From: Bergeyella sp. | Lineage (GTDB): Bacteria > Bacteroidota > Bacteroidia > Flavobacteriales > Weeksellaceae | DNA length: 24,376 nucleotides | Direction: 5' to 3' | Assembly: GCA_032083825.1 (NCBI GenBank) | Contig: DAMDNI010000015.1 | Location: 1 to 24,376 of the forward strand | Shown here: in pieces, positions 284 to 21,242 of the stretch | How positions within the stretch are numbered: the first letter of the stretch is position 1 | How the letters are laid out: the number at the start of each line of letters is the position of its first letter | Made by a program: the position numbers and the translations under genes | Notes under the pieces: generated by a model | Databases searched by the model: none | Seen by the model: the letters and a program-made list of their open reading frames with translations, nothing else | Told to the model about the DNA's origin: nothing

Positions 284-289
284 CATTTT

Positions 290-866: not shown

Positions 867-1238
867 TTACAAAACTGTATTATATTTCGATATAAGCAAA
901 TGATAAAGAAAGGAAGGTATTTGCTTATTGTAAACAACATCTTCTTTCCTTGTTCCATTATCATAATAGACGGTGTGTAATCCCATTACGTAGATATCCT
1001 TATGGATTTTGACAGTATAAAAACTTATACAATCTTCCGCCGTTGTTTCATTGATGAAGTATAAATCATCATTACTGAATAACAATAACCTGAAAGGCGA
1101 TTTGTTTTCAAGATATTTAAGCTTGTAACCACTGAATACTCTTATTAGTCTAATCTCTTTTATATCTCCCTGTTTAAACCCTTCGTTTATATTCTCTTTT
1201 ATAAAACGATTGGATATATAGTCAAATTCTCCTCTCAT
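867..1238 (-). CDS. hypothetical 123-aa protein; candidate cognate immunity protein of the upstream RHS C-terminal toxin
   Basis: Start is 2 nt after the stop of the RHS toxin gene on the same strand (classic toxin-immunity arrangement). No signal peptide or TM segment. No recognisable family by eye. Confidence 0.4.
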   Translation of the reverse strand: MRGEFDYISNRFIKENINEGFKQGDIKEIRLIRVFSGYKLKYLENKSPFRLLLFSNDDLYFINETTAEDCISFYTVKIHKDIYVMGLHTVYYDNGTRKEDVVYNKQIPSFLYHLLISKYNTVL

Positions 1239-1240
1239 AA

Positions 1241-4891: not shown

Positions 4892-4909
4892 AAATTAATT
4901 TGCGAATAT

Positions 4910-7900: not shown

Positions 7901-8494
7901 CTTATCATTAATATCTATGACCACTTTTAAATTATTGGTGGAAGAGACCTTCCATTCTCCATCTGATCCCAGATAAAATTTTCCGCTGTATCCCATAAAG
8001 TTAAATGTAAAAACATCCGGCTCATAATCAGGAAAATGGAGGGCATTATTAGCTAAACTCGACAAATATTGCGGAGAATTCCAATTGCTTGTGTTTAAAA
8101 TATCCTTATAGTAAAAATATCCATTCCAATCGTACCAAAATCCAGATTCACTTATCTTATAGTTCAATTCATCCGCTGCCTTGCCTCTTACAGATCTAGT
8201 TACAACACCACCAGCTTGTAAAGTCCAATTTTGTCCTACCCATCCCGGGACATCGTTAACTCGAACTCCTCCAGTATCATATGACATAGAAATATCCATT
8301 GGAATCCCTCCTTCTTCTAATTGATATATAGGAACATCGACATTTGCTCTTCCTGTACTTAAGTCCATTGACAAATCTCCATATTTGCCTAATGATGCAG
8401 CATTTGGAGATTGTATGTTGATAGGCATTTCTCTGTTTTGTGCTATTATAAAATAGAAAATAGAAATAAACATTAATAAATATAGCTTTTTCAT
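4910..8494 (-). CDS. large secreted YD-repeat protein (RHS-shell partner without RHS core or toxin); beta-rich N-terminal domain of unknown function
   Basis: Signal peptide MKKLYLLMFISIFYFIIAQ. C-terminal half carries YD-type repeats (YNLYDDVGNILQY, YTYHRGG, YTYDSRNRLQKITDKDNRTIKEWDYNY). Ends in a Cys-containing N/S/T-rich domain. 18-nt gap to the downstream RHS gene. Confidence 0.7.
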   Translation of the reverse strand: MKKLYLLMFISIFYFIIAQNREMPINIQSPNAASLGKYGDLSMDLSTGRANVDVPIYQLEEGGIPMDISMSYDTGGVRVNDVPGWVGQNWTLQAGGVVTRSVRGKAADELNYKISESGFWYDWNGYFYYKDILNTSNWNSPQYLSSLANNALHFPDYEPDVFTFNFMGYSGKFYLGSDGEWKVSSTNNLKVVIDINDKVQPNNYYYIAYNNQNNRTFPKVLGKITIIDDQGNKFIFGDLANQNSIEFTFQNFFDQIDTPLISSAWYLTKVYNKYDKLVYDLDYERGDYIAAFYDRNGFQSLKLTTGYYAGGGCAYGNNDGNKVYANGNLIIPSYLKKITTGSSKQISFNSTVNNSLKYGSNDSPIIDTFVKFRQDIQATGANWSQMDDSYFYYIRRDQNLNVLPTVTGGNEHIYPYLEALKWRKLTSLSVLSSDQNTLLTAAFSYNDNPNSRLRLDRITINNIDSKTPQAYSFEYNNFDSLPLFTSKNIDHFGYYKSAPFVLNYDNPSVHEPSRATDPNTVVYGTLSKITYPTKGYTRLFYEPHTYSRYVGNDLDLKQENGIIGGVRIRSMFDYDGVGIPQIKKFSYVTDQQSNQSSGILLQKNNYFLPDYKVPTTASGVTMYQSYFSISPIVYLSNLMGNTIEYSTVIEDNGKGTIFNHYSTYSDYPDFKNDTYIANDKNKFDPHTEYIYKRGRIKQRQYFDKSGGKVRQEDFSYQDTYNQSVKGFSYTSISPCAGVSNAPIVNGSSYNIYFSDFELVGKKITNYFSGGKSIEESETYSYTKNNNFGDNFLTSKTTTNPDKTIEESLFYPFHISNQVNTSLLDKHNFPIIQKETYLDSKNIGKNQSSYGFMPVVDQSSTLLAPSSQNAIDLNTNEEYDKINYNLYDDVGNILQYTPENSVPVSLVWGYNKTRIIAKVEGATYSQVKSYITDIVSSSNQMMANSNYSNDDLVSKLDNFRTNTNLKDYQTTTYTYHRGGIGLKTVTNPSGQRVNYTYDSRNRLQKITDKDNRTIKEWDYNYSSAPLPNIFFNAQKSQVFTRSNCGSNAIGGTYIYNVPEGKYISYSSQPDADQMAQNDINNNGQSAANINGSCTSFYCPVSFYFSGGGSVTVQNNNYYSLTLSFGTGPNSTNLPWTTGVRVATIQGTCRPSSDYNSYNGQIYYTIKTNGDIILRSHNGPLPNNTTFNYPLVFPVN

Positions 8495-8498
8495 GTAT

Positions 8499-10241
8499 TT
8501 ATTTTTTCACGATTTTAGCGTTAACGGACTTAGTTTTAGTTTGGGCGGTAACAATGTAGATCCCCTGTGGAAGTGAGCCCGTATTGATCCTTGTCACCTG
8601 TTGTTTGGTTTTAAGGGACTGCACCTGTCTTCCGCTCATGTCATGAAGGAAGATCTCAGCTTCTTCGTTTCTATTGTCTTCATTCCATACTGAACTTCCG
8701 ATTTCCACATATGCATAATCCTCCACAGGATTAGGATAAATTCTGATATCTTGTTTTTCAATTAATTGGTCAAGGTCTTTATCACCAAGCTTGACGATCT
8801 TCCAATTCTCTTCTCCCAACTGTTCTGCACTTGTTCCTGCAAGAAGAAAAGTTCCATCGTTTTGTAGCTTTGCACTTACCAATCGTTCTTCCTTTTTCTT
8901 TGATGTTCCTTCCACATATTTTCGCCATTCTTCTTTTCCGTTTGGATCTATATACAGCATCCAGAATTTTTCATCATCCTTCTTCAATTTTTCTTCTGCC
9001 TGTGTGTAGCCGCCTAAAAGAAAACCTTTGTCTTCGCTCTGATTGTCTTTTCCTGTCTTCCTGATTACATTCATACTCATCAGAACATCCCGGTTTCCAA
9101 AACTGTAGCTTTTCTGCCACCATTCATCCCCTGCATTGTCCAGTAAAATCAGCCAAAGGTCTGTGCCTTCCTTAATACTTTCTCTTTTATTTCCCGAAGA
9201 GCTGCTTCTGCTTTCCCCTCCAATCAAATAACCGTTATCGGTATAAGCTATGATTTTCGGACGGTCGTCACCTTTTCCTCCGTAAGTTTTCTGCCATTCT
9301 ACATTTGCATTCTTATCCAGTTTTACAATCCAGTAATCTCCTTCTCCGAAGCTTTCTTCTGTTTTGCCGATAAGCTCAGCCTGTGATTCAGAATCTGATA
9401 TTAATGAAGATAATAAATCAGTAGCATCATTTTCTTTTGTTGTGGATGTATAGGATGAATTAGACTGTTCTGAAGTATTTACAATTTTGGTATTGAGATC
9501 TGATTCTAAAGGAAATATCTTATTTTCTGTTTTTCCAGAATTGGAATAGATCAGAAGCAAACTTCCTCCATCAGGAGTAGCAATCATTTCCTGAACTTCA
9601 TCCAGGGCATTTCCTCCGAGAATAGTGGTGTTGATCAGCTTTCCTTCTTTATCAACCTTTGAAACGAATACATCCTTTGATCCAAATAGATTTTTATTGG
9701 AATTGATATTACCTGCGACAAAGAACCCCTGATCTACCGTCTGAACTACTGACGAAACTTCATCGTTGCTTTTTGTTCCAAGTGTTTTTTGCCATAATTC
9801 ATCACCGTTTTCATTAAGCCTTACGATCCATACATCAGAACCTCCGAGGTTGTTTTCTTTCTTATCTCCGGATTGGTTGGAGAATGAAGTCCCTGCCAAT
9901 AAAAATCCTCCTTCCTGCGTAGGAACGGAAGACATGAGGTAATCATGCCTTGAGCCTCCAAAGTATTTATCCCAGAGGATGCTTCCATCCTGGGATAATT
10001 TTACAACATGATAATCATATCCGGAATTTGTGTTATTAGTTGTCGGATGAGAATTGAGGGTTTTGCTCTGTATGGAGCTTCCTGAAAGGAGTATTTGCCG
10101 GTCTAAAGTGAGGGACATCGTGGAGAGAAAATCCTGGGTGGAGGATTTTAGGTCTTTCTGCCATCGGACATCCTGAGCCGAAGTATTGAGCATTCCAAAG
10201 AGAAAGAAGACTCCAAGGGAAAGATGTTTCATATAGTGCAA
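8499..10241 (-). CDS. T9SS (Por) C-terminal sorting domain protein with tandem beta-propeller-type repeats
   Basis: Signal peptide. At least 6 repeats of ..GGS..D..SS..QT.DGG..LAG.S.S..SGDK.E...GGSDVWIVRL...G..LWQKT.GG. C-terminal ~80 aa match the T9SS type-A sorting domain (IRIYPNPVEDYAYVEI...EIFLHDMSGRQV...LPQGIYIVTAQTKTKSVNAKIVKK). 4-nt gap to the next gene. Confidence 0.75.
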   Translation of the reverse strand: MHYMKHLSLGVFFLFGMLNTSAQDVRWQKDLKSSTQDFLSTMSLTLDRQILLSGSSIQSKTLNSHPTTNNTNSGYDYHVVKLSQDGSILWDKYFGGSRHDYLMSSVPTQEGGFLLAGTSFSNQSGDKKENNLGGSDVWIVRLNENGDELWQKTLGTKSNDEVSSVVQTVDQGFFVAGNINSNKNLFGSKDVFVSKVDKEGKLINTTILGGNALDEVQEMIATPDGGSLLLIYSNSGKTENKIFPLESDLNTKIVNTSEQSNSSYTSTTKENDATDLLSSLISDSESQAELIGKTEESFGEGDYWIVKLDKNANVEWQKTYGGKGDDRPKIIAYTDNGYLIGGESRSSSSGNKRESIKEGTDLWLILLDNAGDEWWQKSYSFGNRDVLMSMNVIRKTGKDNQSEDKGFLLGGYTQAEEKLKKDDEKFWMLYIDPNGKEEWRKYVEGTSKKKEERLVSAKLQNDGTFLLAGTSAEQLGEENWKIVKLGDKDLDQLIEKQDIRIYPNPVEDYAYVEIGSSVWNEDNRNEEAEIFLHDMSGRQVQSLKTKQQVTRINTGSLPQGIYIVTAQTKTKSVNAKIVKK

Positions 10242-10417
10242 GTTTTTACCTTTTGAAGGTAGCAGTTTCCCATGATCTTCAAAAGGGTGAAAACACCCAT
10301 TTTTAAGTGACTTTTGTCAACTATTTTTTAAACAGCTTATCATATACTATCTTAAAAACCTGTAAATGAGTACAATATATATTAAACGTAGTTTTTAAGA
10401 AGGATTTTATTTTTGAT

Positions 10418-10459
10418 CATTTTTTATGAAAAACCGGACATTTTTTATGAAAAACCGGA
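10418..10459. repeat. perfect 21-bp tandem duplication cattttttatgaaaaaccgga x2
   Basis: Directly visible at 10418-10438 and 10439-10459, ~180-220 nt upstream of the cargo operon start (10241) in an AT-rich promoter region. Confidence 0.8.
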
Positions 10460-10730
10460 AGAAAAAAAGAAATTCGCTCATTATATCACTATAATGAATG
10501 AATTTTGTTCACTAAAATAACAAGCAAAATGAAATAAATGGATAAGTGATGATTAAGAATAGTAGTATAAAACATTATAATATTTCCTGTAGGGTATCAT
10601 AATTTGTTCTTTTTAGAGGATATCTCTTAATAAAAGCATTACAAAATATCTTAATTTTAGTTACTTTTAAGCATCGAAAGTGAAAAAGAGTAATTTAAAT
10701 TTGAATTATATGAATCAGGAAGTTCAAAGG

Positions 10731-11969
10731 TTATCTTCTTATTTTTTTATGATTATGCTCTTCATTTCTTGAATTACTAATCCTCAAACTATCCTTATAT
10801 TTCTCTTCCAGCCATTTTTGACTTTGTATGTTTTCAATTTTCAAAATTTTGCTTTTCTCCATTTTATCATATTCAATACTCAGTTTAAGACTTTCAACTC
10901 TGAAGCTTTTAAAGTGTTGTGAAGAATAAATTTCTCCGCTGATATGGATTTCTTGCTTTTCAAGGAATGTTTTGATAAGTTCCGGTGGTAATCCCATCTT
11001 TTCACATTCCGTAACAATAGGAAGAGAATCCTTTATTTCAGGGTGATATTGTAATACTTTGTCAAAAACCTTATTCTGCTTTTCTAATGTATTTTCAAGT
11101 TTTGAAACTGAATCCTGCATCTTTCCTTTTTCTCTGTCATTATCAATCCTAAGAATGTTCATTTCTTTTTTCATTTGTTCATTTTCCTTTTCCAATTTCT
11201 TAGTTTTAGAACCCGTTATAGCATTCGCAAAATTTTCAACAATTCTTTTCGAGGATATATTTTTCTCAATGGCTTTCAATTCAGATTGCTTCTGATTCTT
11301 TTCCTTTTCCAACTGTTGATTTTGTTCATGGAGGTTTCGGTAATATTCAGATGTGGAAATATGTTTGGCTTCCGAACCCTCTATCCCTCTTCTTAATCCG
11401 TATTTTGCCATTGTTACAGCATAGGTATTTTGATAATGCTTCAGCTTATTTCTTGCCATTATATCATCAGCACACAACCTATTAGCATTTAAATTCTTCT
11501 TTTTATAAGTCTGAGGATTATTGTCTTTTTTTGCTTTTCTTCTTTCTCCTGTGACTATTGGAACTATGGTAGCGTGGATATGGGGCGTTTTTTCATCCAT
11601 ATGAAGAACAGCAGAAACCAAATTCTCTTCTCCAAAAGTTTCTTTCAGCCAATGAAGATTATCTTTACACCAGTTGCTCAATTGTTTATTGTTCTCAATT
11701 TCTTTCATCGTTTCATGAGTTCCGGACAACATAATACGAATGGCTCTCACTTGATTGGTTCCAATTTTTCTTTTCAGATTGGCGTTATCTAACCTGCATT
11801 GTATTGACGAAGTCCTGTTTTTGATTCCTTCAGGATAGGCAATCATTTCTTTATTGAGATGAGTTCGTGAAGCATCTGCATTTTTCGGATGGATGGTTCT
11901 TTCAATATGGGCTGACATTCCGGAGTCATTGCCTTTGGCTTTTTCTAAATGTAAAACGGTGTATGACAT
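10731..11969 (-). CDS. mobilization relaxase, MobV/Pre (Mob_Pre, plasmid recombination enzyme) family
   Basis: N-terminal domain has the LHMDEKTPHIHATIVP His-hydrophobic-His motif and MSYTVLHLEKAK start typical of MobV/Pre relaxases. Long coiled-coil C-terminal half. Confidence 0.8.
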   Translation of the reverse strand: MSYTVLHLEKAKGNDSGMSAHIERTIHPKNADASRTHLNKEMIAYPEGIKNRTSSIQCRLDNANLKRKIGTNQVRAIRIMLSGTHETMKEIENNKQLSNWCKDNLHWLKETFGEENLVSAVLHMDEKTPHIHATIVPIVTGERRKAKKDNNPQTYKKKNLNANRLCADDIMARNKLKHYQNTYAVTMAKYGLRRGIEGSEAKHISTSEYYRNLHEQNQQLEKEKNQKQSELKAIEKNISSKRIVENFANAITGSKTKKLEKENEQMKKEMNILRIDNDREKGKMQDSVSKLENTLEKQNKVFDKVLQYHPEIKDSLPIVTECEKMGLPPELIKTFLEKQEIHISGEIYSSQHFKSFRVESLKLSIEYDKMEKSKILKIENIQSQKWLEEKYKDSLRISNSRNEEHNHKKIRR

Positions 11970-12029
11970 ACTTCTTAAATTTAGTTGTTAAATAATTCGG
12001 GGGTTTCCAAAGGGGGAGCATTCCCCTTG

Positions 12030-12088
12030 GCTTATTGGGGCTTTTTTAGTGAAGTGCAACGGAGCGTTAAGAAAAAGCCCTAATAAGC
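12030..12088. promoter_or_regulatory. candidate oriT: 17-bp inverted repeat with 25-nt loop, immediately upstream of the relaxase gene
   Basis: gcttattggggcttttt (12030-12046) pairs with aaaaagccctaataagc (12072-12088) with 1 mismatch. Adjacent imperfect IR ccaaagggggagcattccccttgg (12007-12030). MobV-family oriTs typically sit upstream of mob. Confidence 0.35.
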
Positions 12089-12124
12089 TATGGCTTTTCT
12101 TTTCAAAAGCCTGCCATGCAGCCG

Positions 12125-13082
12125 TCACCTTTTTCTTCTGTAGGTATTTGTCTGTTCAGGATTTCTGCTCTCGTCAACATTGCTGCCTAAACTATTCTTC
12201 AAATCACTTTTGCTTTTGAGATAATCGTTCAGGTCTTTATGGTCGGAATAGGTTACTGAAAAATCTTTTGCTTCCGGAAATTCTTCCATTAATTTTGAAG
12301 TGGCTTTTTTTCCGGCTGGATCATTGTCAAGTAGCAAACTTGGTCTTAGCTTGTTTTCTTTTATCCATTCGACAGCTTTATTGAGATTGGAAAGGGAATT
12401 CAGGATAACACAATCTACTTTAAACTCTTTTTCATTCTTTAAAGTAAGATGGGACAGGAAATCAAACATACCTTCGTAAACCATGCAGATTCTACTTTCC
12501 TGATTGGAGCCACTTCCCTCAACCACAGAAATATCCTGCGAAGTACAACCTTTGAAAAATTCGGAACGAAGATGATAGCCTCCATTGTTACTGAGCCGGC
12601 CCAAAGCAGTGTATTTCCTGTCACCGATGGAATAATGAATCTCCTGCAGATATTTCCCCGCAGTATCAATATTGATTTTACGCTCCTGTAAATAGTGCAA
12701 CAATTTTGAATCCTGAAGAGATTGTATTGTATCAATATTGACATTGGATTGTCTTGTGGTCATTTGATTTCCTATTTTCTCTTTCTCGTTATTGAAGATA
12801 GAATCTGTTTTCAGATTTAAGTCATTCAAGAAAGAAAGAAAGTGCTTCGGAAATGTTTCTTGCTTTTTGCATGGCAATAACTAGGTCAATAATGGTTCCA
12901 CCTTGAGCAGAGCCATGGTCGTACCATAGATTCAGTTTGTCATCAACTTTCATCGATGCCGTTCTTTCCGTTCTCAAGGGAGAGAGGTAAAAATGGTTGT
13001 ATCGAACAATTCTTTGCGGTTGATACCCTAAAGCACTTAGAAAATCGATAATCCTGATATTTTTTGCTGTCTTTGTATTCAT
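12125..13082 (-). pseudogene. toprim-domain DNA primase (Bacteroidota mobile-element type), interrupted by a frameshift inside an (AAAG)3-4 tract
   Basis: N-terminal ORF (13082->12822) gives the characteristic ..IIDFLSALGYQPQR..YLSPLRTERTASMKVDDKLNLWYDHGSAQGGTIIDLV..EALSFFLE then stops. The toprim body continues in another frame (..FLSFLNDLNLK.. to 12125). The frame change falls in aagaaagaaagaaag at 12829-12843. Confidence 0.65.
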
Positions 13083-13172
13083 TTATTTTGGATTTATTGT
13101 GTATTCTTTTTCTTTCAACAGCAATTTTGCTATTGAAAGAAAAATCAGTATTGGGTTATGGGGGTTCGATGA

Positions 13173-13220
13173 CTGGTTTAGTCTGGTTTACTAATATATA
13201 TTAGTAAACCAGACTAAACC
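13173..13220. repeat. 48-bp perfect palindrome tggtttagtctggtttacta-atatatat-tagtaaaccagactaaacca
   Basis: Exact reverse-complement symmetry verified base by base. Lies in the 163-nt spacer between the primase and ATPase genes. Preceded by a second IR ctttcaacagcaa/ttgctattgaaag (13116-13143). Confidence 0.8.
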
Positions 13221-13245
13221 AATAGACCATTGAATGATTTTGGAC

Positions 13246-14283
13246 TCAGTAGTAAAAGTTATGGTTGAATTTGTAAAATCTCCCTTCTTTAAAAATCATC
13301 GTTTTGTTTTGACAAAAGACCTTCAGTTTTTTAGCCTTATTGGTTCCAAAATCATATCCGAAATGAGTATAGGATTCTATGAGCTTTGAAATCAATTCTC
13401 CATAGGAAAGTGATTTTTGGTTTCTGAAAGCAAGCGATAGTGCTTCCCGATGAATTTGTTCCGAGATTTCGTGATAATCAAATCCCTTGGCTTGACCTGT
13501 CTGTATATGATAATCATCCACAGGCTCAGGCAGACCATCGTCATCAATCCTGAAAGCAAAAGGCTCAAACTCAACATCACGAATGCTCATCGGTTTTACA
13601 ATAGAGATATTCGGGTCTTTTTCATCCCTTACCACTTGTAGTATAGTTTCGGCTTTATTCAGCAGTTCAGTTCCCAAATGTCCCCGTGCATTATCATCCG
13701 TTTTATTGACATGTAAAACCGTGTGAATATGCAACTGATAGACTTCTGTCCAGATCATCAGTTTAGAAATAATCTCGGTAGATTCATTCGGGGAATTGAT
13801 ATCGAATACCAAATCTCTGATACCGTCAATAATAACCAATCCCAATGAAGTGGTGCTTTTGATTGCTTCTTCTATAATCTGAATACGGGTTGAAGGATTG
13901 AATCTTCTCAAACAAACAAATTCCAAATTTTTGGGTTGAAATTCCTTGCTCATTCCCGAAAGTTCAATTATCCTTGACAATACTTTCTGACTGTGATACG
14001 GACTTTGTTCGGTATCGAAGTAAATGATTTTCCTCTTATCATCCGGCATTGCTGCATTGTAATTGAGCATTAATCGACAGACTAGAGCAGCTGCGGTCAT
14101 CGCTGTAACACTAAAGGTCTTTCTGCTTTTGGCTTTTCCAACGGTAGCCGAAAAATTTCCAAGTGTTCCTACAACAGATTCATCAATACGGATGACCACA
14201 GGCGGATATTCAAATTTATCGGTAATCAAAAGCCTTGAGGAATGCCATAGACTCTTTATGTCTTTGTTGCTATCCATCATCAT
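13246..14283 (-). CDS. P-loop/RecA-like ATPase of the mobile-element replication module (helicase/primase-associated)
   Basis: Deviant Walker A TVGKAKSRKT and Walker B-like LGLVIIDGIRDL. Start ATG overlaps the stop of the upstream HTH gene (ATGA). Conserved position between excisionase-like and primase genes as in Bacteroidota CTn/IME backbones. Confidence 0.55.
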   Translation of the reverse strand: MMMDSNKDIKSLWHSSRLLITDKFEYPPVVIRIDESVVGTLGNFSATVGKAKSRKTFSVTAMTAAALVCRLMLNYNAAMPDDKRKIIYFDTEQSPYHSQKVLSRIIELSGMSKEFQPKNLEFVCLRRFNPSTRIQIIEEAIKSTTSLGLVIIDGIRDLVFDINSPNESTEIISKLMIWTEVYQLHIHTVLHVNKTDDNARGHLGTELLNKAETILQVVRDEKDPNISIVKPMSIRDVEFEPFAFRIDDDGLPEPVDDYHIQTGQAKGFDYHEISEQIHREALSLAFRNQKSLSYGELISKLIESYTHFGYDFGTNKAKKLKVFCQNKTMIFKEGRFYKFNHNFYY

Positions 14284-14582
14284 TTTCTTCCTCCTGCTTT
14301 ACGTCCTGCCAATTCTAATGCAAGGTTTACATCCACAATTATTTTACGTCCTATCTGTGTGATGGCTTTATCTATTTTTCCACTCTGCTTGATACGGTTG
14401 GCTGTGGGAATGCTGCAACCGAAAAGGCGTGCGATTCCGGCGATTCCGTAAACGTGTTTTTTTATGGAATTATTGAGGGGAACAGACTCAGCTTCTTTAT
14501 GCACATCGGTCTTCTGAAGATAGAGAAATTCTTCACCTGTCATCTGCCAAAGAGGCTTTTGCTTAAGTTCGGTTAGGTTCAT
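14280..14582 (-). CDS. excisionase-like HTH DNA-binding protein (Bacteroidota mobile-element family)
   Basis: KHVYGIAGIARLFGCSIPTANRIKQSGKIDKAITQIGRKIIVDVNLALEL is the HTH_17/MerR-like excisionase motif seen next to CTnDOT-type integrases. Confidence 0.65.
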   Translation of the reverse strand: MNLTELKQKPLWQMTGEEFLYLQKTDVHKEAESVPLNNSIKKHVYGIAGIARLFGCSIPTANRIKQSGKIDKAITQIGRKIIVDVNLALELAGRKAGGRK

Positions 14583-14697
14583 ATTCTTTTACAATGTTAT
14601 GGTTAAACAAGCCTTGTACTTCGGCGTTATTGTTCGAACACATTGCAAATCTATGACGGGAAAAAGGTGGTAAGGAGGTGGATTCCTGAAATTTATA

Positions 14698-14714
14698 TCA
14701 TTGATAATCAATGA
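14698..14714. promoter_or_regulatory. 7-bp inverted repeat tcattga-taa-tcaatga; candidate operator upstream of the xis-ATPase-primase genes
   Basis: Perfect IR ~115 nt upstream of the HTH gene start (14582), in a non-coding gap. Confidence 0.3.
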
Positions 14715-14759
14715 CTATTAAAAATATTTTAAGTGGTAAAAGTGGTTGCTTATGGAATA

Positions 14760-15803
14760 TCAAGAAATAGTATTGAATATTGACTCAATAACGCCTTTAA
14801 ATTCTTTATTTTTCTTATTGCCTTCTTCAGAACTTACGGATACCATTTTATATTTAGAATTGTAAGTGTCCCATTTAATTCCTAATTGATTGAGTAGAAC
14901 AGTTCTCCATTCTTTATTTTCATCAGATTGAAGAACATCATAAAGTTTTGAAATTAAATGATAAGTCCGCTCTTTTTCACCATAATTAATTTTCAGCTTA
15001 GCAATCGTTGGTCGCAAATTGAGAATGTTATAAAAATCTACAACACCCAAATTCTCGAATTGTATTCCATTACATTCTTTATGAATGGATGATATTAATT
15101 GCATATCAAAATACTCTCCCTGTTTTTGTTCGGAATTTTCCTCGGAAGTTGGTCTTATTTCATCAAAAAAATAATTATTTAAAACCAATAGAAAAGAACT
15201 TTCCATTTCGCAAATCTTTCCAAAAACATTATCGGCAAACTTTAGGGATTCTTGACGCAATTTTTCTTTTTCCTGATAAAGTGCATCAAGTTTTTGTTGT
15301 TCGATCTTATACAAGTTGGAAAATTTGTTTATTTTTTCTTCAAGCTCTCTAACTCTAACTTCATCACCTTTCCAACTTGCCGATTCCAAAGAATTTTTTG
15401 CATCCCTTAATTCTATATACTGATTATTGGTATGTTTTTCTTGGATTTTTATTTTGGAGTCAATGGAATTGGCTCTATCCCAGCAAATTTCAAATGTATC
15501 TATATCATCTAAAGAATTTCTATGGTCATTATACTTTTCGATATTCTTTTTTATCACTTTCCGCAATATCGAAAAAACCTGTACTTGTTTTTCCTTGTCT
15601 TTGGAAGTGATGAAATTTAAAACTGCTTTTTCAAAATTTTCAAGATTTCTGAATTGATTAAAAAAAGTAACAATTTGTTGTTGTTCCTCAAAATGCAATA
15701 TTTTGTCTTTCAGTATGTTTTGATATATTTCGTCTAATTTCGTGTATTTCGGCAATATATCCATAATTTGATATAGAGAACCTTGGGTTTTATTTTCTTC
15801 CAT
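14760..15803 (-). CDS. hypothetical 347-aa coiled-coil-rich protein (element accessory/cargo gene, unknown function)
   Basis: Long uninterrupted ORF with Lys/Glu-rich predicted coiled-coil segments, in the same orientation as int and xis. No motifs I recognise. Confidence 0.6.
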   Translation of the reverse strand: MEENKTQGSLYQIMDILPKYTKLDEIYQNILKDKILHFEEQQQIVTFFNQFRNLENFEKAVLNFITSKDKEKQVQVFSILRKVIKKNIEKYNDHRNSLDDIDTFEICWDRANSIDSKIKIQEKHTNNQYIELRDAKNSLESASWKGDEVRVRELEEKINKFSNLYKIEQQKLDALYQEKEKLRQESLKFADNVFGKICEMESSFLLVLNNYFFDEIRPTSEENSEQKQGEYFDMQLISSIHKECNGIQFENLGVVDFYNILNLRPTIAKLKINYGEKERTYHLISKLYDVLQSDENKEWRTVLLNQLGIKWDTYNSKYKMVSVSSEEGNKKNKEFKGVIESIFNTIS

Positions 15804-15811
15804 TTGTCAAA

Positions 15812-17101
15812 TTATAATTGATTAAATTTATCCATTGCACTGGCTTTGATTTCGTCAGCAATATCAATATAGGGTTTCATTGCCTTATAATCACTGTGTC
15901 CCGTCCATTTCATGACAACCTGCGCAGGAATACCCAATGAAAGGGCATTACAAATAAATGTCCGCCTTCCTGCATGAGTTCCCAAAAGAGCATACTTTGG
16001 TGTCACTTCATCGATTCGCTTATTTCCTTTATAGTAGACCTCCCGTACAGGCTCGTCAATTTCCGCCAATTCCGCCAGTTCTTTCAAATAATCGTTCATC
16101 TTCTGATTGGTGATGACCGGAAGAACTTTATCATACTCAAAATGAACTTCTTTATACTTGCCCAGTATTGCTTTGCTGTGGTTGTTTAACTCGATAATTA
16201 AACTGTCCGCAGTTTTTACAGTGGTAATTTCGATATGGTTGTCTTTTACATCACTGCGCCTCAAATTGAATACATCTGAATATCTAAGCCCTGTAAAACA
16301 CTGGAACAAAAAAACATCACGAACTCTCTCCAAGTATTTTTTTGTTTCCGGAATTTTGTATTCTCTCAATTTCGTCAATTCTGCCCAGGTCAAAAATATA
16401 ACCTTCTTTTGAGTGGTCTTTAATTTTGGTTTAAATAATTCAAAGGCAAAATTGGAGGTGTATCCTTTCTTTTTACTCCAGCGAAGAAACCATTTTAGAA
16501 ATCCTATCTGCTTACCGATGGTACTATTTCGAAAGCTCTTCTTGTCACGGAGATAGTTTACAAATTCAGTGAGTTTGTTCTCGTCCCATGATTCGAAAGT
16601 CAAATTTTTATCAAAATCTTCCAAATGCTTTTTCGTGGTGGCAAATTTTTCATAGGTTGCTTCTGTCCAATTGTTATGAACTCCGCAGTCTCGTACAAAT
16701 TCATCAAATTTACCCATGAACGAAAGTATTGAGGATTCTAATTCAAGACTATTAGGCAAATCCTTATTTTGCCGATTATTGAATGCTGCTTTAAGTTGTT
16801 CAGGAGTAGGAATGATTTCGTTTACTTCACATTCTTTGAAAATATCCTGTATATCCGAATAATATTTTAAAAGATCTGAATTGATTTCGGCTGCGGTCTG
16901 CTTAAGTTTATTGGTACAGCCATTTTTTACACGCTGCTTGTCTTTATCCCATTTGGAAAAATCGATACGGTAGCCTGTGGTAAATTCTATCCTTTTATTA
17001 TGGTAAATAACACGCATACGGATAGGTACATTTTCAATCACAGGAAGACCGTCTTTCTTTCTTTTTTCAAGCGCAAAAACTATATTTCGTTTGATATTCA
17101 C
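15812..17101 (-). CDS. tyrosine site-specific integrase (CTnDOT/NBU-like, with N-terminal arm-binding domain)
   Basis: N-terminus RNIVFALEKRKKDGLPVIENVPIRMRVIYHNKRIEFTTGYRIDFSKWD is typical of Bacteroidota integrases. C-terminal catalytic motifs are present (..LTWAEL.., HAGRRTF, HSDYKAMKPYIDI with Tyr). Likely GTG start at 17101. The longest ORF reaches 17158 via TTG. Confidence 0.85.
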   Translation of the reverse strand: MNIKRNIVFALEKRKKDGLPVIENVPIRMRVIYHNKRIEFTTGYRIDFSKWDKDKQRVKNGCTNKLKQTAAEINSDLLKYYSDIQDIFKECEVNEIIPTPEQLKAAFNNRQNKDLPNSLELESSILSFMGKFDEFVRDCGVHNNWTEATYEKFATTKKHLEDFDKNLTFESWDENKLTEFVNYLRDKKSFRNSTIGKQIGFLKWFLRWSKKKGYTSNFAFELFKPKLKTTQKKVIFLTWAELTKLREYKIPETKKYLERVRDVFLFQCFTGLRYSDVFNLRRSDVKDNHIEITTVKTADSLIIELNNHSKAILGKYKEVHFEYDKVLPVITNQKMNDYLKELAELAEIDEPVREVYYKGNKRIDEVTPKYALLGTHAGRRTFICNALSLGIPAQVVMKWTGHSDYKAMKPYIDIADEIKASAMDKFNQL

Positions 17102-17120
17102 GGGTGTATAACATATTAAT

Positions 17121-17148
17121 CGACACCCAAATTTACACCCAATTATTG
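17121..17148. repeat. right copy of 'acacccaa' direct-repeat pair (candidate att/arm site)
   Basis: gacacccaaatttacacccaattattg just upstream of the integrase start. See 396-423. An inverted gggtgt is also present at 17103-17108. Confidence 0.4.
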
Positions 17149-17361
17149 AGATATACAAAGATTTTTTATGATACTCAACTATAACAACAAATTCGTATTA
17201 TACCTGATTATCAATATTTTGATATTCTATAATCATCTAATAGGGTTCAGGAGAAAGAGCCTTATGGAGTACAAAACTGACATTCATTATATAAAAAATG
17301 TCCTGATTTTTCAGCGCAGACGTTCAAAAAAATCAAATGAAACTGAAGGACAATTTTTTCT

Positions 17362-17434
17362 TGCAGAAATGGCGAAACGGTAAACGCGCTTGATTTAGAA
17401 TCAAGATTTTGAGAGTTCGAATCTCTCTTTCTGT
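17362..17434 (+). tRNA. class-I (short variable arm) tRNA with anticodon TAG; Leu anticodon but non-Leu architecture
   Basis: Acceptor gcagaaa/tttctgt (G-U at 1-72). D stem gcga/acgc. Anticodon stem cttga/tcaag with loop ttTAGaa. 5-nt variable loop. T arm gagag-ttcgaat-ctctc. Discriminator a. Confidence 0.5.
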
Positions 17435-17441
17435 ACTACTT

Positions 17442-17514
17442 TGATTTGTAGTGTAATTGGATAGCACACAAGACTTTGACTCTTGTTGTTCAGGTTCGAA
17501 TCCTGACAAATCAA
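17442..17514 (+). tRNA. tRNA-Gln (anticodon TTG)
   Basis: Acceptor tgatttg/caaatca (U1-A72 as in bacterial tRNA-Gln). D stem gtgt/gcac. Anticodon stem caaga/tcttg with loop cTTTGac. T arm tcagg-ttcgaat-cctga. Confidence 0.75.
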
Positions 17515-17519
17515 CATTT

Positions 17520-17596
17520 GGATAAATGGTGTACAAGGTGTGGCACGTCAGACTGAAAATCTGAAGGTATTGGTTCGATTCCGATTTTATCCACCA
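17520..17596 (+). tRNA. tRNA-Phe (anticodon GAA), CCA encoded
   Basis: Acceptor ggataaa/tttatcc. Anticodon stem tcaga/tctga with loop ctGAAaa. T arm attgg-ttcgatt-ccgat. Discriminator a then cca. Confidence 0.8.
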
Positions 17597-17640: not shown

Positions 17641-18126
17641 ATGGAAACACAACAAGAAATCTGGCAAAATTTAAAAGGAATATACTTCCGAAAACCTATT
17701 ACAGAATTGGTGGAAGAAGCCATCATCAGAGAACATGCTTTGGGAAATACACTTAAAGTGTGTATCGGTTCGGATTCTCATGTATATGGTGAAAGTATCC
17801 ATTATGCAACCGCTGTTGTGTTTATCCGAAAAGGAAAAGGTGCATTCACTTTTATCCGAAAACAAAAAGAAATTAAAACCATCAGCATCAAAGAACGAAT
17901 GTTGAACGAAGTCAATAAATCCGTAGAAATCGCATACACAATCTGCGAAATTCTAGAAAAATACAATATGGAGATGGAAGTTCATGCCGATATCAACACC
18001 GATCCTGATTTTAAATCCAATGCCGCGTTGAAAGATGCGATGGGATATATTTTAGGAATGGGATATACCTTCAAAGCAAAACCATATGCTTTTGCAAGCT
18101 CCAATTGTGCAGATTTGATTGTGTAA
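17641..18126 (+). CDS. YkuK-family (DUF458) RNase H-like fold protein
   Basis: 161 aa. KVCIGSDSHVYGESIHYATAVVF, MEVHADINTD and a C-terminal MGYTFKAKPYAFASSNCADLIV parallel the B. subtilis YkuK layout (GTDSQ...HIDVG...MGY..K.KP.SYAASS.AD) as I recall it. Confidence 0.65.
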   Translation: METQQEIWQNLKGIYFRKPITELVEEAIIREHALGNTLKVCIGSDSHVYGESIHYATAVVFIRKGKGAFTFIRKQKEIKTISIKERMLNEVNKSVEIAYTICEILEKYNMEMEVHADINTDPDFKSNAALKDAMGYILGMGYTFKAKPYAFASSNCADLIV

Positions 18127-18158
18127 TTAACAATTAAACAACTTAAAAATATAAAATT

Positions 18159-18479
18159 ATGAGACGAGAAGTATTACAAAGATTCCTTACCAATACAGAT
18201 GAAACCGGAAGATTCATTGTAAAATCTTCCGTCACAGGAATCACTTATTATATTGAACCACTTTACAGAGGAAAACCTTTGCAATGGGGAGATATTGATC
18301 CTGCTACAAAACAGCTTACCGGAAATTACGGAAGTAAAAATACTGGAGCTGTTATGGAAAAAGAATCTTTACTAACCAAAGAAAACGGTTTCGAAAATGT
18401 AGGATATTTCAAAGGAAGTCCTTTTGGAGAAATCGACAGACGAGATAAAGAACATGCAGAGAAAATGGGATTAGCATAA
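18159..18479 (+). CDS. hypothetical 106-aa protein
   Basis: ORF with plausible spacing (32 nt after YkuK stop). Its stop is 2 nt before the next gene's ATG. No recognisable motifs. Confidence 0.55.
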   Translation: MRREVLQRFLTNTDETGRFIVKSSVTGITYYIEPLYRGKPLQWGDIDPATKQLTGNYGSKNTGAVMEKESLLTKENGFENVGYFKGSPFGEIDRRDKEHAEKMGLA

Positions 18480-18481
18480 AA

Positions 18482-18784
18482 ATGAAAAAATTATTGTTCT
18501 TAGATGATATCAGGAATCCGATTGATGTTTTCGGATATACATTTAATCCATTGTTTCAAAATGATAATTGGATTATTGTAAGACGATTTCAAGATTTTAA
18601 AACTTGGATTACTGCAAACGGTTTACCTGATATCATTTCTTTCGACCATGATTTGGCGGATGGAAAAAATGAAAATGAAAAAACAGGTTACGATTGTGCA
18701 AAATGGTTGGTAGAATACTGCTTGAAACATAAAAAGTCTTGTCCTGATTTTATCTGCCATTCTATGAATCCTGTTGGAAAATAA
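18482..18784 (+). CDS. small receiver-like domain protein (resembles the family annotated as cyclic-phosphate processing receiver, CPR-like)
   Basis: 100 aa. MKKLLFLDDIR N-terminus, SFDHDLADG...GYDCAKWLVEY...HSMNPVGK pattern recalled from CPR/receiver-like small proteins. Assignment is from memory and needs HMM confirmation. Confidence 0.45.
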   Translation: MKKLLFLDDIRNPIDVFGYTFNPLFQNDNWIIVRRFQDFKTWITANGLPDIISFDHDLADGKNENEKTGYDCAKWLVEYCLKHKKSCPDFICHSMNPVGK

Positions 18785-18825
18785 AATATCGAAAAACTAT
18801 TAATACAATTTAAAAATTTAAAACA

Positions 18826-19377
18826 ATGAATACAACAGAAAATATATTAGTCCTCGATATTGAAGCAACTTGTTGGGAAAACAGCAAAGCAGCCCAAGGT
18901 CAGGAAAGTGAAATTATAGAAATAGGCGTTTGTCTACTCAACACAAAAACAGGAAAAATTTCTAAAAACGAAGGAATTTTAATAAAACCAATGTATTCAA
19001 AAGTCAGTCCGTTTTGTACGGAACTTACTTCCATAACTTCGGAAATGCTTCAAAAAGAAGGAATTTCTTTAGGAGATGCTTTTGATATTTTGAGGGACAA
19101 TTACGATTCTGAAAATTTAACTTGGGCAAGTTACGGAAATTATGACCTCACAATGCTGAAGAGACAAAGCGATCGATTTGGGGAAGATTATCCTTTTGCT
19201 TACGAGCATATTAATGTGAAAACGTTATTTGCAGAACTGCATCCAATCCGTAAAAGCGTTGGAATGGCAAGTGCATTGAAAGCATTAAATATTCCTTTAG
19301 AAGGAACGCATCACAGAGGTGTGGACGATGCTAAAAATATTGCAAAAATTCTTTTTTGGTGTTTAAATCAAAATTAA
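18826..19377 (+). CDS. DEDDh-family 3'-5' exonuclease (KapD/ERI-1/oligoribonuclease-like)
   Basis: Exo I LVLDIEATC (D-x-E), EIIEIG. Exo II YGNYD. Exo III HRGVDDAKN (H-x4-D). Confidence 0.8.
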   Translation: MNTTENILVLDIEATCWENSKAAQGQESEIIEIGVCLLNTKTGKISKNEGILIKPMYSKVSPFCTELTSITSEMLQKEGISLGDAFDILRDNYDSENLTWASYGNYDLTMLKRQSDRFGEDYPFAYEHINVKTLFAELHPIRKSVGMASALKALNIPLEGTHHRGVDDAKNIAKILFWCLNQN

Positions 19378-19383: not shown

Positions 19384-19416
19384 CTACGCAAAAAGATTGC
19401 GTAGATGTATTTTTAC
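19384..19416 (+). terminator. rho-independent terminator after the 4-gene cluster
   Basis: ctacgcaa-aaaga-ttgcgtag 8-bp stem followed by atgtattttt. Confidence 0.55.
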
Positions 19417-19638
19417 TTTGCATCAGAATTTGAAATCAACACTAAAATTAAGAAATAGTTTTAGTCAAAATATCAGACAAGTCTTGTTGAGTGTTTCTGT
19501 ACAACACCATTGCAGAACGTTTTGTTGAGAAACATCATTCGGTTTTGTTCAACTTGATTTGAAGGTTTGAGGATAACCAAAAATTCTCACTAAGTTCTAT
19601 GTATGGAGGTTCGAGTCCTCCCTGTGAAATCACAGTAG

Positions 19639-19707
19639 CTAAATTGGTATAGCAATGGAAATTTTAGGATGCGCAGGTTCGAATCCTGCTCTCAATTCGC
19701 TTGAGAT
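19639..19707 (+). tRNA. degenerate tRNA-like module: acceptor, canonical D arm and T arm but no proper anticodon arm
   Basis: atcacag-ta-gcta-aattggta-tagc D arm and gcagg-ttcgaat-cctgc T arm. The 3' acceptor tctcaat does not pair with the 5' strand. Middle region lacks a 5-bp anticodon stem. Confidence 0.25.
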
Positions 19708-19709
19708 AA

Positions 19710-19787
19710 CTCAGTTGGTTAGAGTACTACGCTTTTACCGTAGATCCGAAATAGACTCAAAATCTATTTCTCCGAGTTTCATATTTC
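19710..19787 (+). tRNA. tRNA-Lys(TTT)-like with aberrant T arm (probable pseudo-tRNA)
   Basis: cttgaga-ta-actc-agttggtta-gagt-a-ctacg-cTTTTac-cgtag is a textbook 5' two-thirds. The T arm is replaced by aatag-actcaaaat-ctatt (no TTCRA). 3' acceptor tctccgag matches only imperfectly. Confidence 0.3.
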
Positions 19788-20144
19788 TCTAAAAAATATG
19801 ACCATTAGGGAAAAACAATGCTTTTGTCAGTTGTTCAATCCACACTCTGAAAAAGCCTGAAAATGAAATTTTTCCGAAAAATGAATTTTAAATAACTAAT
19901 GAATAGAAAAAAGATAAAATTTTGAATGAAAATTGAAATTGATTGAATACGAAAAAAAACGCGAGCGAAGCGAGCGTCGATAAAACGTACTGATTTCATT
20001 TCCTTTTTAAGTTTAAAAAACATCCGATTTCTACATTATTTTTTAAAACTCAAAATTTCACAGAACATTTCATTTCCGCCAAATTCAGAAGATAAAAACA
20101 CTGTTTTTCCTTTTTTTTAATTGAATAAAAAAAATATAGAAATC

Positions 20145-21242
20145 ATGATCAATAACGTAAAAATTAAAACCTATCAAAAAGGTCTTGTCTTCAAAGATCG
20201 AAAATTAATCGACATTTTAAACGAAGGCCAATATTGGATTTTCGGAAACAAAAAAGTACACATCCACGAAATGATTTTACCATTAATCAACGGAGAAGAC
20301 AACAACCTTTTATTGAAAAATGAAAATCTTGCCGATGTATTGGAAATCGTTGAAGTTCAAGATAACGAAATCGTTCTTTTATACGAAAAAGGAATCTTCA
20401 AAGATGTTTTAAAAACCGGACAATACGCATATTGGAAAGGAATCATCGAACGAAACTTCGTAAAAATCGATTTGAATAAAGTGGAAATCACCGAAAACAT
20501 TTCGAATTCTATTTTAGAGAACAACAAACTTCATGCATATGTTCGGAAAATTGTTGTTGCGAATCAATACAGAGGTTTATTGTTTGTGGACGGAAAGTTA
20601 GAAAAGGTTTTAGAAGCCGGTTCTTATTATTTTTGGAATAACTCCATCGGAATTGAAATTCGTTCCGTTGATACCCGAATCCAACAAATGGAAATCGCCG
20701 GTCAGGAATTGTTAACCAAAGATAAAGCCAATTTGCGTTTGAATTTTCAAACTCGTTTCCAGATAACAGATGCGGTAAAAGCATTAACCGGAAACAAAGA
20801 ATACGACAAACAATTGTATACTTTGATGCAATTAGCACTTCGTGAATACGTTGGAAAATTAACTTTGGACGAATTGCTTGCCAACAAAGAAAGCGTGGGT
20901 TCAGAAGTTTTAAATTCCATTGGAAATAAAGCTGAAGAATTAGGTTTAAAAATCAGCGATGCCGGAATTCGAGACATTATTTTAACTGGAGAAATGAAAG
21001 ACATCATGAATCAGGTTTTGATTGCCGAAAAGAAAGCACAAGCCAATTCCATCATGCGTCGTGAAGAAACTGCTGCAACCCGAAGCATGTTGAACACCGC
21101 AAAAATGATGGAAGAAAACGAAGTTCTTTGGAAGTTAAAAGAAATGGAATACATGGAAAAAATCGCCGACAAAATTGGAGATATCACCGTTTCCGGAAAT
21201 TCTAATATCGTCACTCAATTGAAGGAAATCTTCACCAAATAA
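20145..21242 (+). CDS. SPFH/band-7 (stomatin/flotillin-like) domain protein with N-terminal triplicated beta-rich repeat
   Basis: C-terminal half RKIVVANQYRGLLFVDGKLEKVLEAGSYYFW...LRLNFQTRFQITDAVKALTGN...LALREYVGKLTLDELLANKESV...LGLKISDAGIRDIILTGEMKDIMNQVLIAEKKAQAN is SPFH-like. ATG at 20145 preferred over the upstream TTG. Confidence 0.8.
   Translation: MINNVKIKTYQKGLVFKDRKLIDILNEGQYWIFGNKKVHIHEMILPLINGEDNNLLLKNENLADVLEIVEVQDNEIVLLYEKGIFKDVLKTGQYAYWKGIIERNFVKIDLNKVEITENISNSILENNKLHAYVRKIVVANQYRGLLFVDGKLEKVLEAGSYYFWNNSIGIEIRSVDTRIQQMEIAGQELLTKDKANLRLNFQTRFQITDAVKALTGNKEYDKQLYTLMQLALREYVGKLTLDELLANKESVGSEVLNSIGNKAEELGLKISDAGIRDIILTGEMKDIMNQVLIAEKKAQANSIMRREETAATRSMLNTAKMMEENEVLWKLKEMEYMEKIADKIGDITVSGNSNIVTQLKEIFTK

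Follow-up and report, generated by a model that had tools for sequence, protein, structure and literature searches.

An accessory tRNA-array locus of Flavobacteriales with predicted RNA-end enzymes, an orphan protein, and a conserved tRNA-like RNA

Genes with established or proposed roles in RNA repair include the RtcB-PrfH pair (PMC9304027) and RlaP (PMC12776372). The receiver-like cREC domain is predicted to resolve or open 2',3'-cyclic phosphates and has been linked to RNA ligases (PMC7824862, PMC9503650), and it is found mostly in phages and prophages (PMC9503650). In cyanobacteria, arrays of transfer RNA (tRNA) genes adjoin RNA-processing genes and respond to translational stress (PMC8421152). 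Bacteria and large phages both carry tRNA arrays with small open reading frames (ORFs) embedded in them. Here, we describe a locus that gives handles on what such arrays and ORFs do. It lies on a stretch of 24,376 nucleotides (nt) from Bergeyella sp. (Flavobacteriales, Weeksellaceae; assembly GCA_032083825.1, contig DAMDNI010000015.1, positions 1 to 24,376 of the forward strand), which we call the window, and it includes four consecutive genes beside tRNA genes: those for a YkuK-like protein, a 106-residue orphan protein (p106), a cREC protein, and a DEDDh exonuclease.

A first-pass annotation of the window had grouped these four genes into a candidate undescribed module for RNA-end processing. 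Our analyses show that they are instead the variable enzyme slot of a larger conserved accessory locus of Flavobacteriales and not a fixed module. The general order of this locus is (RtcB, PrfH, RlaP, or Rnl2), tRNA array, YkuK, p106, (cREC, DEDDh exonuclease, or phosphoesterase), a structured noncoding RNA (ncRNA) that resembles tRNA, and an SPFH gene. Its most widely conserved parts are the tRNA array, p106, the tRNA-like RNA, and the SPFH gene, which lie partly outside the four-gene block at positions 17641 to 19377. Overall, the window carries a real variant of an RNA-repair/tRNA-array locus, whose function we infer from its context.

The architecture of the block is as the annotation had described it. 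The coordinates and a hairpin scan agree on four same-strand genes separated by 32, 2, and 41 nt, with a terminator-like hairpin 3' of the block. The genes for tRNA-Leu, tRNA-Gln, and tRNA-Phe stand directly upstream, with the YkuK ORF beginning 44 nt past the end of tRNA-Phe, and similar genes are found beside tRNA arrays elsewhere. Because homologues keep both their lengths and their residues, we regard the four ORFs as genuine genes rather than chance ORFs. The nearest named relatives of their products are Chryseobacterium proteins (85 to 88% identity).

To place the block in context, p106 was used as the anchor of a survey in which 80 genome loci were collected on top of those collected earlier, yielding 87 loci with p106. 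A script surveyed these loci (labelled L001 and so on) for tRNA genes and for proteins related to those of the window. A second set was entered via YkuK and includes loci that lack p106 (L169 to L171). Homologues of p106 were sought in a set of 5.8 billion proteins, and a cluster search covered 1.84 billion representatives of 50% identity clusters. The viral sets were the GenBank phage collection and IMG/VR contigs, from which 78 loci spanning about 6 kb on each side of p106 were analyzed. All adjoining ORFs were clustered, and the cluster representatives were scanned against Pfam. Protein families were assigned using Pfam, PHROG, NCBIfam, and PADLOC (the latter scan took in the exonuclease, YkuK, and p106), and RNAs were identified using ARAGORN and Rfam. 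These neighborhood and hidden Markov model (HMM) searches, which the annotation had proposed as checks, revealed co-conservation of the genes in related loci. Likewise, its family calls for the YkuK-like, receiver-like, and DEDDh proteins all exceed curated Pfam thresholds.

Among the 87 p106 loci, the DEDDh exonuclease family is present in 34, YkuK in 17, and cREC in 6. All four genes occur together in three loci, each of the Chryseobacterium type (L001, L014, and L015). Thus, the proposed module holds to the extent that its genes recur beside tRNA arrays, but they do not form a fixed unit. Other genomes carry different subsets: Chryseobacterium nematophagum has the order tRNAs-YkuK-cREC-ncRNA-SPFH, and Chryseobacterium sp. 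CT-SW4 has tRNAs-YkuK-DEDDh-ncRNA-SPFH. The loci that were found through YkuK and lack p106 are built on this framework too, with tRNAs, YkuK, either cREC or DEDDh, the ncRNA, and SPFH, and YkuK adjoins tRNA arrays in them (L169 to L171) as well as in the 17 p106 loci. The positions of DEDDh and YkuK relative to p106 vary among Chryseobacterium, Flavobacterium, Kordia, Tenacibaculum, and Nonlabens, which argues for a functional linkage and not just an inherited order.

Genes related to RNA repair recur in the same neighborhoods. Of 83 related loci, 28 encode RtcB, on the same strand and some 3.7 kb upstream. RlaP nucleotidyltransferases form two clusters, present in 11 and 7 loci, and there are Rnl2-type RNA ligases in 14 loci, PrfH-like release factors in 9, and calcineurin-like phosphoesterases in 8. 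None of the RNA ligase and rescue genes (RtcB, PrfH-like, RlaP, Rnl2) was found in the window.

The second gene of the block, p106, had been called unassignable, and it indeed has no Pfam, PHROG, NCBIfam, or PADLOC match. The larger protein set holds 194 homologues, and all of those with a named source come from Flavobacteriales. The cluster search returned 197 clusters at 50% identity, nearly all of them standalone proteins of 85 to 115 residues. The family has a median isoelectric point of 9.3 (7.9 for the window copy). An AlphaFold2 model of p106 reached a pLDDT of 88.9, and no similar fold was found in the PDB or among viral models. Domain fusions gave no lead, since a match of 923 residues is a SpaA-repeat false positive and one of 255 residues is a chimera or deletion that joins p106 to a polynucleotide kinase-phosphatase (PNKP).

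The genomic associations of p106 are more informative. Same-strand tRNAs lie within 5 kb upstream of p106 in 69 of the 87 loci, and 61 loci have at least three of them. In 55 of the 87, a tRNA is located no more than 700 nt upstream, often at a distance of 20 to 40 nt. If there is about one tRNA gene per 80 kb of genome, we estimate that an association of this kind would be expected by chance in a few per cent of loci.

The same tie is evident in phages. Three GenBank phages carry p106 matches with 42 to 52% identity. In Ralstonia phage RsoM2USA, the array comprises 15 tRNAs, and p106 is flanked there by tRNA-Lys and tRNA-Arg. It is located within a 24-tRNA array in Stenotrophomonas phage DLP_6, and a PolyA_pol-family (CCA-adding-like) enzyme and a PNKP precede it in a gut phage. 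Furthermore, p106 is present on 138 IMG/VR viral contigs. Of the 78 viral loci analyzed, 48 encode a PNKP with kinase and HAD phosphatase domains immediately upstream of p106, 44 have a PolyA_pol-family (CCA-adding-like) gene in the vicinity, and 29 have a nearby partial ligase ORF that runs off the edge of the locus. Fifteen viral loci have at least three same-strand tRNAs around p106 (up to 37), mostly on both sides of the gene, and in phage arrays p106 is often only 4 to 44 nt from the neighboring tRNA. Several of the tRNA-rich contigs are 230 to 435 kb long. The three independent contexts of p106 point to tRNA metabolism or repair.

The first and last genes of the block encode the predicted nucleases. 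The YkuK-like protein matches PF04308 (RNaseH_like) over residues 34 to 158 with 115.9 bits (cutoff 25; E = 1.8e-33), and it also matches phrog_11311. Residues D45, E90, D117, and D158 are among 40 columns that are identical in at least 18 of the 19 rows of an alignment that holds one Vibrio phage homologue twice. These four residues probably correspond to the catalytic positions of RNase H-like enzymes, an assignment supported by the grouping of YkuK with the RNase H1 clade (PMC3985635). The protein is predicted to be a metal-dependent nuclease. The literature searched holds no biochemistry on YkuK/DUF458, and a sequence search of solved structures with YkuK returned nothing.

The exonuclease matches PF00929 (RNase_T) with 67.7 bits (cutoff 24; E = 2.3e-18), and its closest solved structures are those of ERI-1/3'hExo (1w0h, 2.9e-12). 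Residues D11, E13, D107, H162, and D167 align with the DEDDh catalytic residues of 3'hExo. Thus, the catalytic residues of both nucleases are intact, by alignment to 3'hExo for the exonuclease, as the annotation had proposed for that protein, and by conservation across homologues for YkuK. The best NCBIfam model for the exonuclease is KapD, with 68.3 bits against an equivalog cutoff of 169, and by this score we classify the protein as a relative of KapD and not an orthologue. In the PADLOC scan, only the exonuclease was matched, by two generic models (a CRISPR-associated DEDDh and an 'Effector' exonuclease), and YkuK and p106 had no match. This outcome agrees with the earlier view that the block is not a known defense system.

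The third gene encodes a protein that matches PF20274 (cREC_REC) with 81.1 bits (cutoff 27; E = 9.6e-23) and also phrog_1479. An aspartate pair (residues 8 and 9) and D55/D57 are invariant among four homologues. The presumed novelty of the block is therefore limited in this respect, as cREC had already been described computationally in 2021. No histidine kinase was found among the scanned window ORFs and no NAD or ADP-ribose enzyme was seen; the neighbors of the cREC gene are nucleases and tRNAs.

The window copy of the cREC gene is interrupted. Its ORF ends at an in-frame TAA (codon 101, positions 18782 to 18784), which removes 13 to 15 C-terminal residues that homologues have and leaves the domain incomplete. 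The 15 codons past this TAA still resemble, in the same frame, the C-terminus of homologues (NI..LL..FK.L), and the extended frame ends in a TGA (18827 to 18829) that overlaps the ATG of the exonuclease gene (ATGA). By this resemblance, the 41-nt spacer in front of the exonuclease gene appears to be the recently truncated end of the cREC gene. The stop could be due to a nonsense mutation or a sequencing error, or it could mark a truncation that is tolerated. From the former ATGA overlap, we suspect that translation of cREC and the exonuclease was once coupled.

Downstream of the block, the first-pass annotation had noted degenerate tRNA-like modules. The tRNA-like segments are present, with partial Rfam tRNA matches at 19636 to 19689 and 19706 to 19768, but they are not decaying tRNAs. 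The helices of this ncRNA occur in the order T-arm-like hairpin, D-like arm, T-arm, closed acceptor-like hairpin, D-arm, anticodon-like arm, and T-like arm. When the window sequence is aligned with those of two Chryseobacterium-type loci (L012 and L014), 7 of 37 pairs show compensatory changes. A covariance model built for this RNA (R1) finds it in at least 55 of the 87 loci, always downstream of p106. In the 46 best matches, pairing holds in 96.2% of cells and double changes are seen at 30 of 32 pairs, compared with 33 to 49% paired in slid controls, although this alignment was fitted to the model, which favors the structure. We rejected the possibility that the region consists of decaying tRNA pseudogenes because of this covariation, and we consider the ncRNA to be a conserved structured RNA rather than tRNA debris on the strength of the same alignments.

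No Rfam family matches the ncRNA at its gathering threshold. However, YrlA (RF02553) gives a sub-threshold match at 19643 to 19758 (36.6 bits versus a gathering score of 69; E = 1e-5), and similar matches of 31.7 to 47.7 bits are found at the equivalent position in four other genera (Aquimarina, Flavobacterium, Tenacibaculum, and Kordia). The succession of T-arm, closed acceptor-like hairpin, and D-arm equals that of the tRNA-like domain of YrlA, as compared with its published description (PMC4201824). The outer helix is poorly paired in the Rfam alignment, and a Ro-binding helix is not evident. Likewise, no TROVE match was found among the scanned window ORFs, and no Ro60-sized family recurs in the surveyed loci. 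The R1 model found nothing in 80 viral loci. In L002 and L057, Rfam transfer-messenger RNA matches (6493 to 6614 and 8702 to 8776, respectively) cover only the tRNA-like ends of that model and are intergenic, downstream of p106 and near the ncRNA.

With the exception of one locus in which the ORF as called overlaps the ncRNA, every scored locus has the ncRNA 241 to 652 nt upstream of the SPFH start codon. The presumably soluble SPFH/Band 7 family, to which the window protein belongs, is encoded on the same strand in 58 of the 87 loci. On reading its sequence, the window protein has no N-terminal hydrophobic stretch. It contains two copies of a strand-like motif (KGLVFKD..L.EGQYW and RGLLFVD..L.AGSYYFW), one in an N-terminal extension and the other at the start of the Band 7 domain. 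In L002, a protein of 746 residues without a Pfam family stands in the place of SPFH. One Aquimarina locus (L064, 9709 to 9839) has the orphan motif Flavo-1 RNA (RF01705, 48.8 bits, exceeding the gathering score) in the interval from the ncRNA to the SPFH gene; we rejected this RNA as a constant part of the locus, as it is absent from the window and from seven other loci.

Table 1. Features of the Bergeyella sp. window
Feature	Position	Strand	Details and basis
Left part of tRNA array	1-353	+	3' end of a tRNA cut by the edge, tRNA-Asn 50-123, tRNA-Pro 212-284, remnant 297-353; ARAGORN, Rfam
Mobilizable integrative element	~360-17300 (ends approximate)	-	~17 kb; Pfam, PHROG
Mob_Pre relaxase (of the element)	10731-11969		
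Tyrosine integrase (of the element)	15812-17158		
Other genes of the element			DUF3853, AAA_25, Toprim, DUF6443/RHS-repeat proteins, protein sorted by the type IX secretion system (T9SS)
Right part of tRNA array	17363-17596	+	tRNA-Leu(UAG) 17363-17436, tRNA-Gln(UUG) 17442-17515, tRNA-Phe(GAA) 17520-17596; ARAGORN
YkuK-like ORF	17641-18126	+	161 aa
p106 ORF	18159-18479	+	106 aa
cREC ORF	18482-18784 as called; homologous frame to 18829	+	100 aa as called
DEDDh exonuclease ORF	18826-19377	+	183 aa
Terminator-like hairpin	19384-19404; T-rich tail to 19414	+	consensus scan
Structured tRNA-like ncRNA	19590-19775; core 19633-19770	+	Rfam, covariance model R1
SPFH/Band 7 protein	20121-21242	+	PF01145, 95.6 bits

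The tRNA array of the window is split into two parts (Table 1). The left part has Rfam tRNA matches at 50 to 122, 214 to 281, and 297 to 353, the last of which covers model positions 8 to 63 (37.6 bits). The tRNAs of the right part score 61.6 to 69.6 bits in Rfam and are separated by 5 and 4 nt. Positions 1 to 353 and 17442 onward align to a single contiguous array in L001 and L015, which indicates that the mobilizable element has split the array of the window. The integrase therefore belongs to a separate inserted element and not to the cassette. No direct repeat of 12 nt or more that could represent an attachment site was found for the element. The remnant at 297 to 353 lacks its acceptor stem, has a Glu-like UUC anticodon loop by eye, and abuts the left junction of the element; this remnant could represent the target tRNA of the integration.

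With 3 + 2 intact tRNAs plus remnants, the window has fewer tRNA genes than the tRNA array unit as defined by Tran et al. (2016) (at least 20 tRNA genes at a density of at least 2 per kb; PMC4758250). Arrays of related loci reach 25 tRNAs. Their spacers are short, with a median of 8 nt and 286 of 463 no longer than 15 nt. Immediately before p106, the last tRNA is tRNA-Phe in 34 of 66 related loci. In the arrays upstream of p106 in these 66 Flavobacteriales loci, tRNAs for Asp, Phe, His, Leu(UAG), Arg(ACG), Pro, Glu, Gln, Tyr, Lys, Asn, and Cys are common, and those for Gly, Ala, Val, and Thr are nearly absent. The tRNAs for Asp, His, Tyr, Asn, Glu, Gln, Lys, and Arg(ACG) are classical targets of anticodon nucleases. 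Among the window tRNAs, only tRNA-Phe has an encoded CCA, as read from the sequence.

The tRNA-Leu(UAG) gene of the window is 74 nt long and has a short variable arm. All 42 array tRNA-Leu(UAG) genes are likewise 73 to 76 nt in length and lack the long variable arm that is typical of bacterial tRNA-Leu, and the tRNA-Tyr and tRNA-Ser genes of the arrays retain theirs. A tie between the short tRNA-Leu and p106 was considered and rejected, as most tRNA-Leu genes in phage arrays that hold p106 have the usual long arm.

Other genes appear at the edges of some loci. Directly upstream of the array in two Chryseobacterium genomes (L001, 1 to 2302; L170, 1 to 5048) are bpX0, bpX1, bpX3, and SNAP-like genes, which we take to be families of conflict systems. 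A family of 234 residues with no Pfam match is encoded in 14 loci (for example L003, 7690 to 8394), of which 3 are of the Chryseobacterium type and 10 are marine, and in Nonlabens loci it directly follows the exonuclease gene.

The gene context leads us to propose, tentatively and at somewhat less than even confidence, that the locus deals with damaged tRNAs by replacing them and by healing RNA ends. Each biochemical step in the following scheme is our inference from the family identities, catalytic residues, gene associations, and covariation reported above. Anticodon nucleases or other metal-independent RNases would cut tRNAs and leave 2',3'-cyclic phosphate ends, and the array would provide replacements for the tRNA species most often targeted. 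cREC would open the cyclic phosphate. After dephosphorylation, the ERI-1-like exonuclease would trim the 3' end, or the 4- to 8-nt trailers of the array transcript, and the YkuK-like enzyme would cut or clear broken or duplexed fragments. Ligases, which are nearby in other genomes or might be encoded elsewhere in the genome of the window, would reseal the RNA. p106, a mostly basic small protein shared by Flavobacteriales and phages of proteobacteria, could be a cofactor that binds either tRNA or an enzyme of tRNA processing, and the tRNA-like RNA could act as a tRNA mimic that serves as a scaffold or decoy. ERI-1 is an enzyme that trims structured RNAs at their 3' ends, and DEDDh exonucleases are expected to need a 3'-OH. 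A chain in which cREC, with a phosphatase in some loci, acts before the exonuclease would be coherent for this reason. The earlier suggestion of a cassette for RNA repair or quality control thus gains from the RNA-repair neighbors of related loci, but the function is still read from gene context.

We also considered a bolder form of this proposal, which seems to us somewhat unlikely. Here, p106 would be a portable tRNA-handling cofactor for any bacterial tRNA, and the ncRNA, acting alongside a soluble SPFH protein, would mimic tRNA in the manner of a Y RNA but independently of Ro60. Together they would constitute a new tRNA damage-response system, with spare tRNAs, nucleases that heal ends, and a tRNA decoy or scaffold all encoded in a single unit. 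Portability of p106 would explain the 42 to 58% identity between Flavobacteriales proteins and those of phages with other hosts.

Several observations weigh against the damage-repair proposal. The activities of cREC, YkuK, p106, and the SPFH subfamily are all predicted, and co-transcription of the four genes with the tRNAs is putative. The window encodes no kinase, phosphatase, ligase, or regulator. Within 8 kb, eight Chryseobacterium-type loci have no RtcB and only one Rnl2, so that the lineage of the window has healing and nuclease genes without a linked ligase. In the one Vibrio phage locus examined, no tRNA genes occur within about 5 kb on either side of the YkuK homologue. The window copy of the locus may be partly decayed, given the stop codon within cREC and the mobile element that divides the array. 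Finally, much of the synteny is inheritance within one order, and locus counts do not represent independent events.

Some of the same evidence could be accommodated by a role in maturation of the array itself, where the DEDDh enzyme would trim trailers after RNase P, YkuK would cut the polycistronic precursor, and p106 would aid processing or charging of unusual array tRNAs such as the short tRNA-Leu. The tight packing of the arrays with spacers of 4 to 8 nt, the lack of an encoded CCA in most array tRNAs, the unusual short tRNA-Leu(UAG) genes, the placement of p106 between phage tRNAs only a few nucleotides away, and the CCA-adding/poly(A) polymerase-family gene near p106 in viral loci would all suit such a role. 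We nonetheless consider it unlikely, as it leaves cREC, RtcB, PrfH, RlaP, Rnl2, and PNKP in the same neighborhoods unexplained and as 60 of the 78 viral p106 loci have no same-strand tRNA. Moreover, host RNases P and Z, along with exonucleases, are normally enough for tRNA maturation.

The locus might instead be a phage-derived or mobile tRNA island, kept by the bacterium as a domesticated remnant, whose accessory genes serve a mobile element or phage, for example by countering host defenses that cleave tRNAs. The PHROG matches of cREC and YkuK, the prevalence of cREC in phages and prophages, and the viral p106 genes speak for this reading. The window tRNAs are also 77 to 88% identical to phage tRNAs, and the flanks of the locus differ among Chryseobacterium genomes. 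This origin seems improbable to us: phage structural or replication genes adjoin none of the surveyed Flavobacteriales loci, the integrase of the window belongs to the element inserted in the array, and the locus is vertically widespread in three Flavobacteriales groups, always with an ncRNA-SPFH partner that is absent from viral loci. Alternatively, tRNA genes are common integration targets, and the block might be unrelated cargo in a variable hot spot beside them, with no shared function. The slot does vary in content (YkuK plus cREC, YkuK plus DEDDh, or all four genes), and an integrative element did land in the window's own array. This explanation appears to us the most doubtful, because the same few families recur in many genera in different orders, all are RNA-end or nuclease enzymes, and the genes are tightly spaced (2 nt and the former ATGA overlap). 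In unrelated phages, moreover, p106 again accompanies tRNAs and RNA-repair genes.

In the libraries and literature searched, which did not take in the RNA-repair survey of Burroughs and Aravind (2016), three aspects of the locus are new. One is the p106 family itself, together with its association with tRNA arrays and PNKP; another is that YkuK and an ERI-1-like exonuclease have been drawn into such a locus; and the third is that a tRNA-like RNA is paired with SPFH in the absence of Ro60. Across unrelated hosts, the strongly conserved orphan p106 keeps company with tRNA arrays and PNKP, and the predicted enzymes cREC and YkuK gain a context that suggests their substrates. A YrlA-like mimic with SPFH and no Ro60 nearby could broaden what counts as a bacterial Y RNA and account for the presence of SPFH genes in rtc loci. 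If the repair or replacement proposal is right, the locus would be a defense against tRNA-cleaving toxins and phage-triggered anticodon nucleases.

The locus can be compared with five known systems. The exonuclease has its best sequence relatives in ERI-1/3'hExo and KapD, with aligned catalytic residues, but it scores below the KapD cutoff and has no SAP or other extra domain. The jumbo-phage cRec systems (Iyer et al. 2021, PMC7824862; 2022, PMC9503650) use the same PF20274 family as a standalone small protein, never with a histidine kinase, in RNA-repair contexts. However, their partners (Nudix, sirtuin, 2H, Macro, T4-like ligase, and WYL) are absent from the window locus, where a truncated cREC lies next to tRNAs with p106, the YkuK nuclease, and the DEDDh exonuclease as its partners.

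Repair of tRNA by phage T4, in which a PNKP and an RNA ligase counter PrrC, shares a heal-then-seal logic with our proposal. In viral loci, p106 is encoded directly downstream of PNKP (48 of 78), with a PolyA_pol-family gene (44) or a partial ligase ORF (29) nearby. In contrast, the window lacks a kinase, phosphatase, and ligase, healing would fall to cREC and the DEDDh exonuclease, and p106 is outside the described T4 pathway. The cyanobacterial L-arrays (2021, PMC8421152) are also dense and co-oriented, their neighborhood is rich in genes for RNA processing and translation, including rtcB, and Bacteroidetes are among the phyla listed with such arrays. They differ in their cyanobacterial hosts and in their HNH endonuclease, rtcB, and dpsA genes, and exonucleases go unmentioned in the portion of that text searched.

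A further parallel to the wider locus is offered by Rtc-type loci with Y RNA, such as Salmonella rsr-yrlBA-rtcBA and the RtcB-PrfH operons, in which RNA-repair enzymes are encoded with a tRNA-mimicking ncRNA. RtcB and PrfH-like genes accompany 28 and 9 of the related loci, respectively, the arm order of the ncRNA is that of YrlA, and an SPFH gene is also present in the rtc locus of Pseudomonas aeruginosa (PMC13086221). However, the surveyed loci have no recurrent Ro60-sized family, RtcA, or RtcR, the window has no RtcB, and the ncRNA scores below the YrlA gathering score without an evident Ro-binding helix. To the repair enzymes and tRNA mimic of those loci, the window-type locus adds a real tRNA array, p106, and a conserved SPFH partner.

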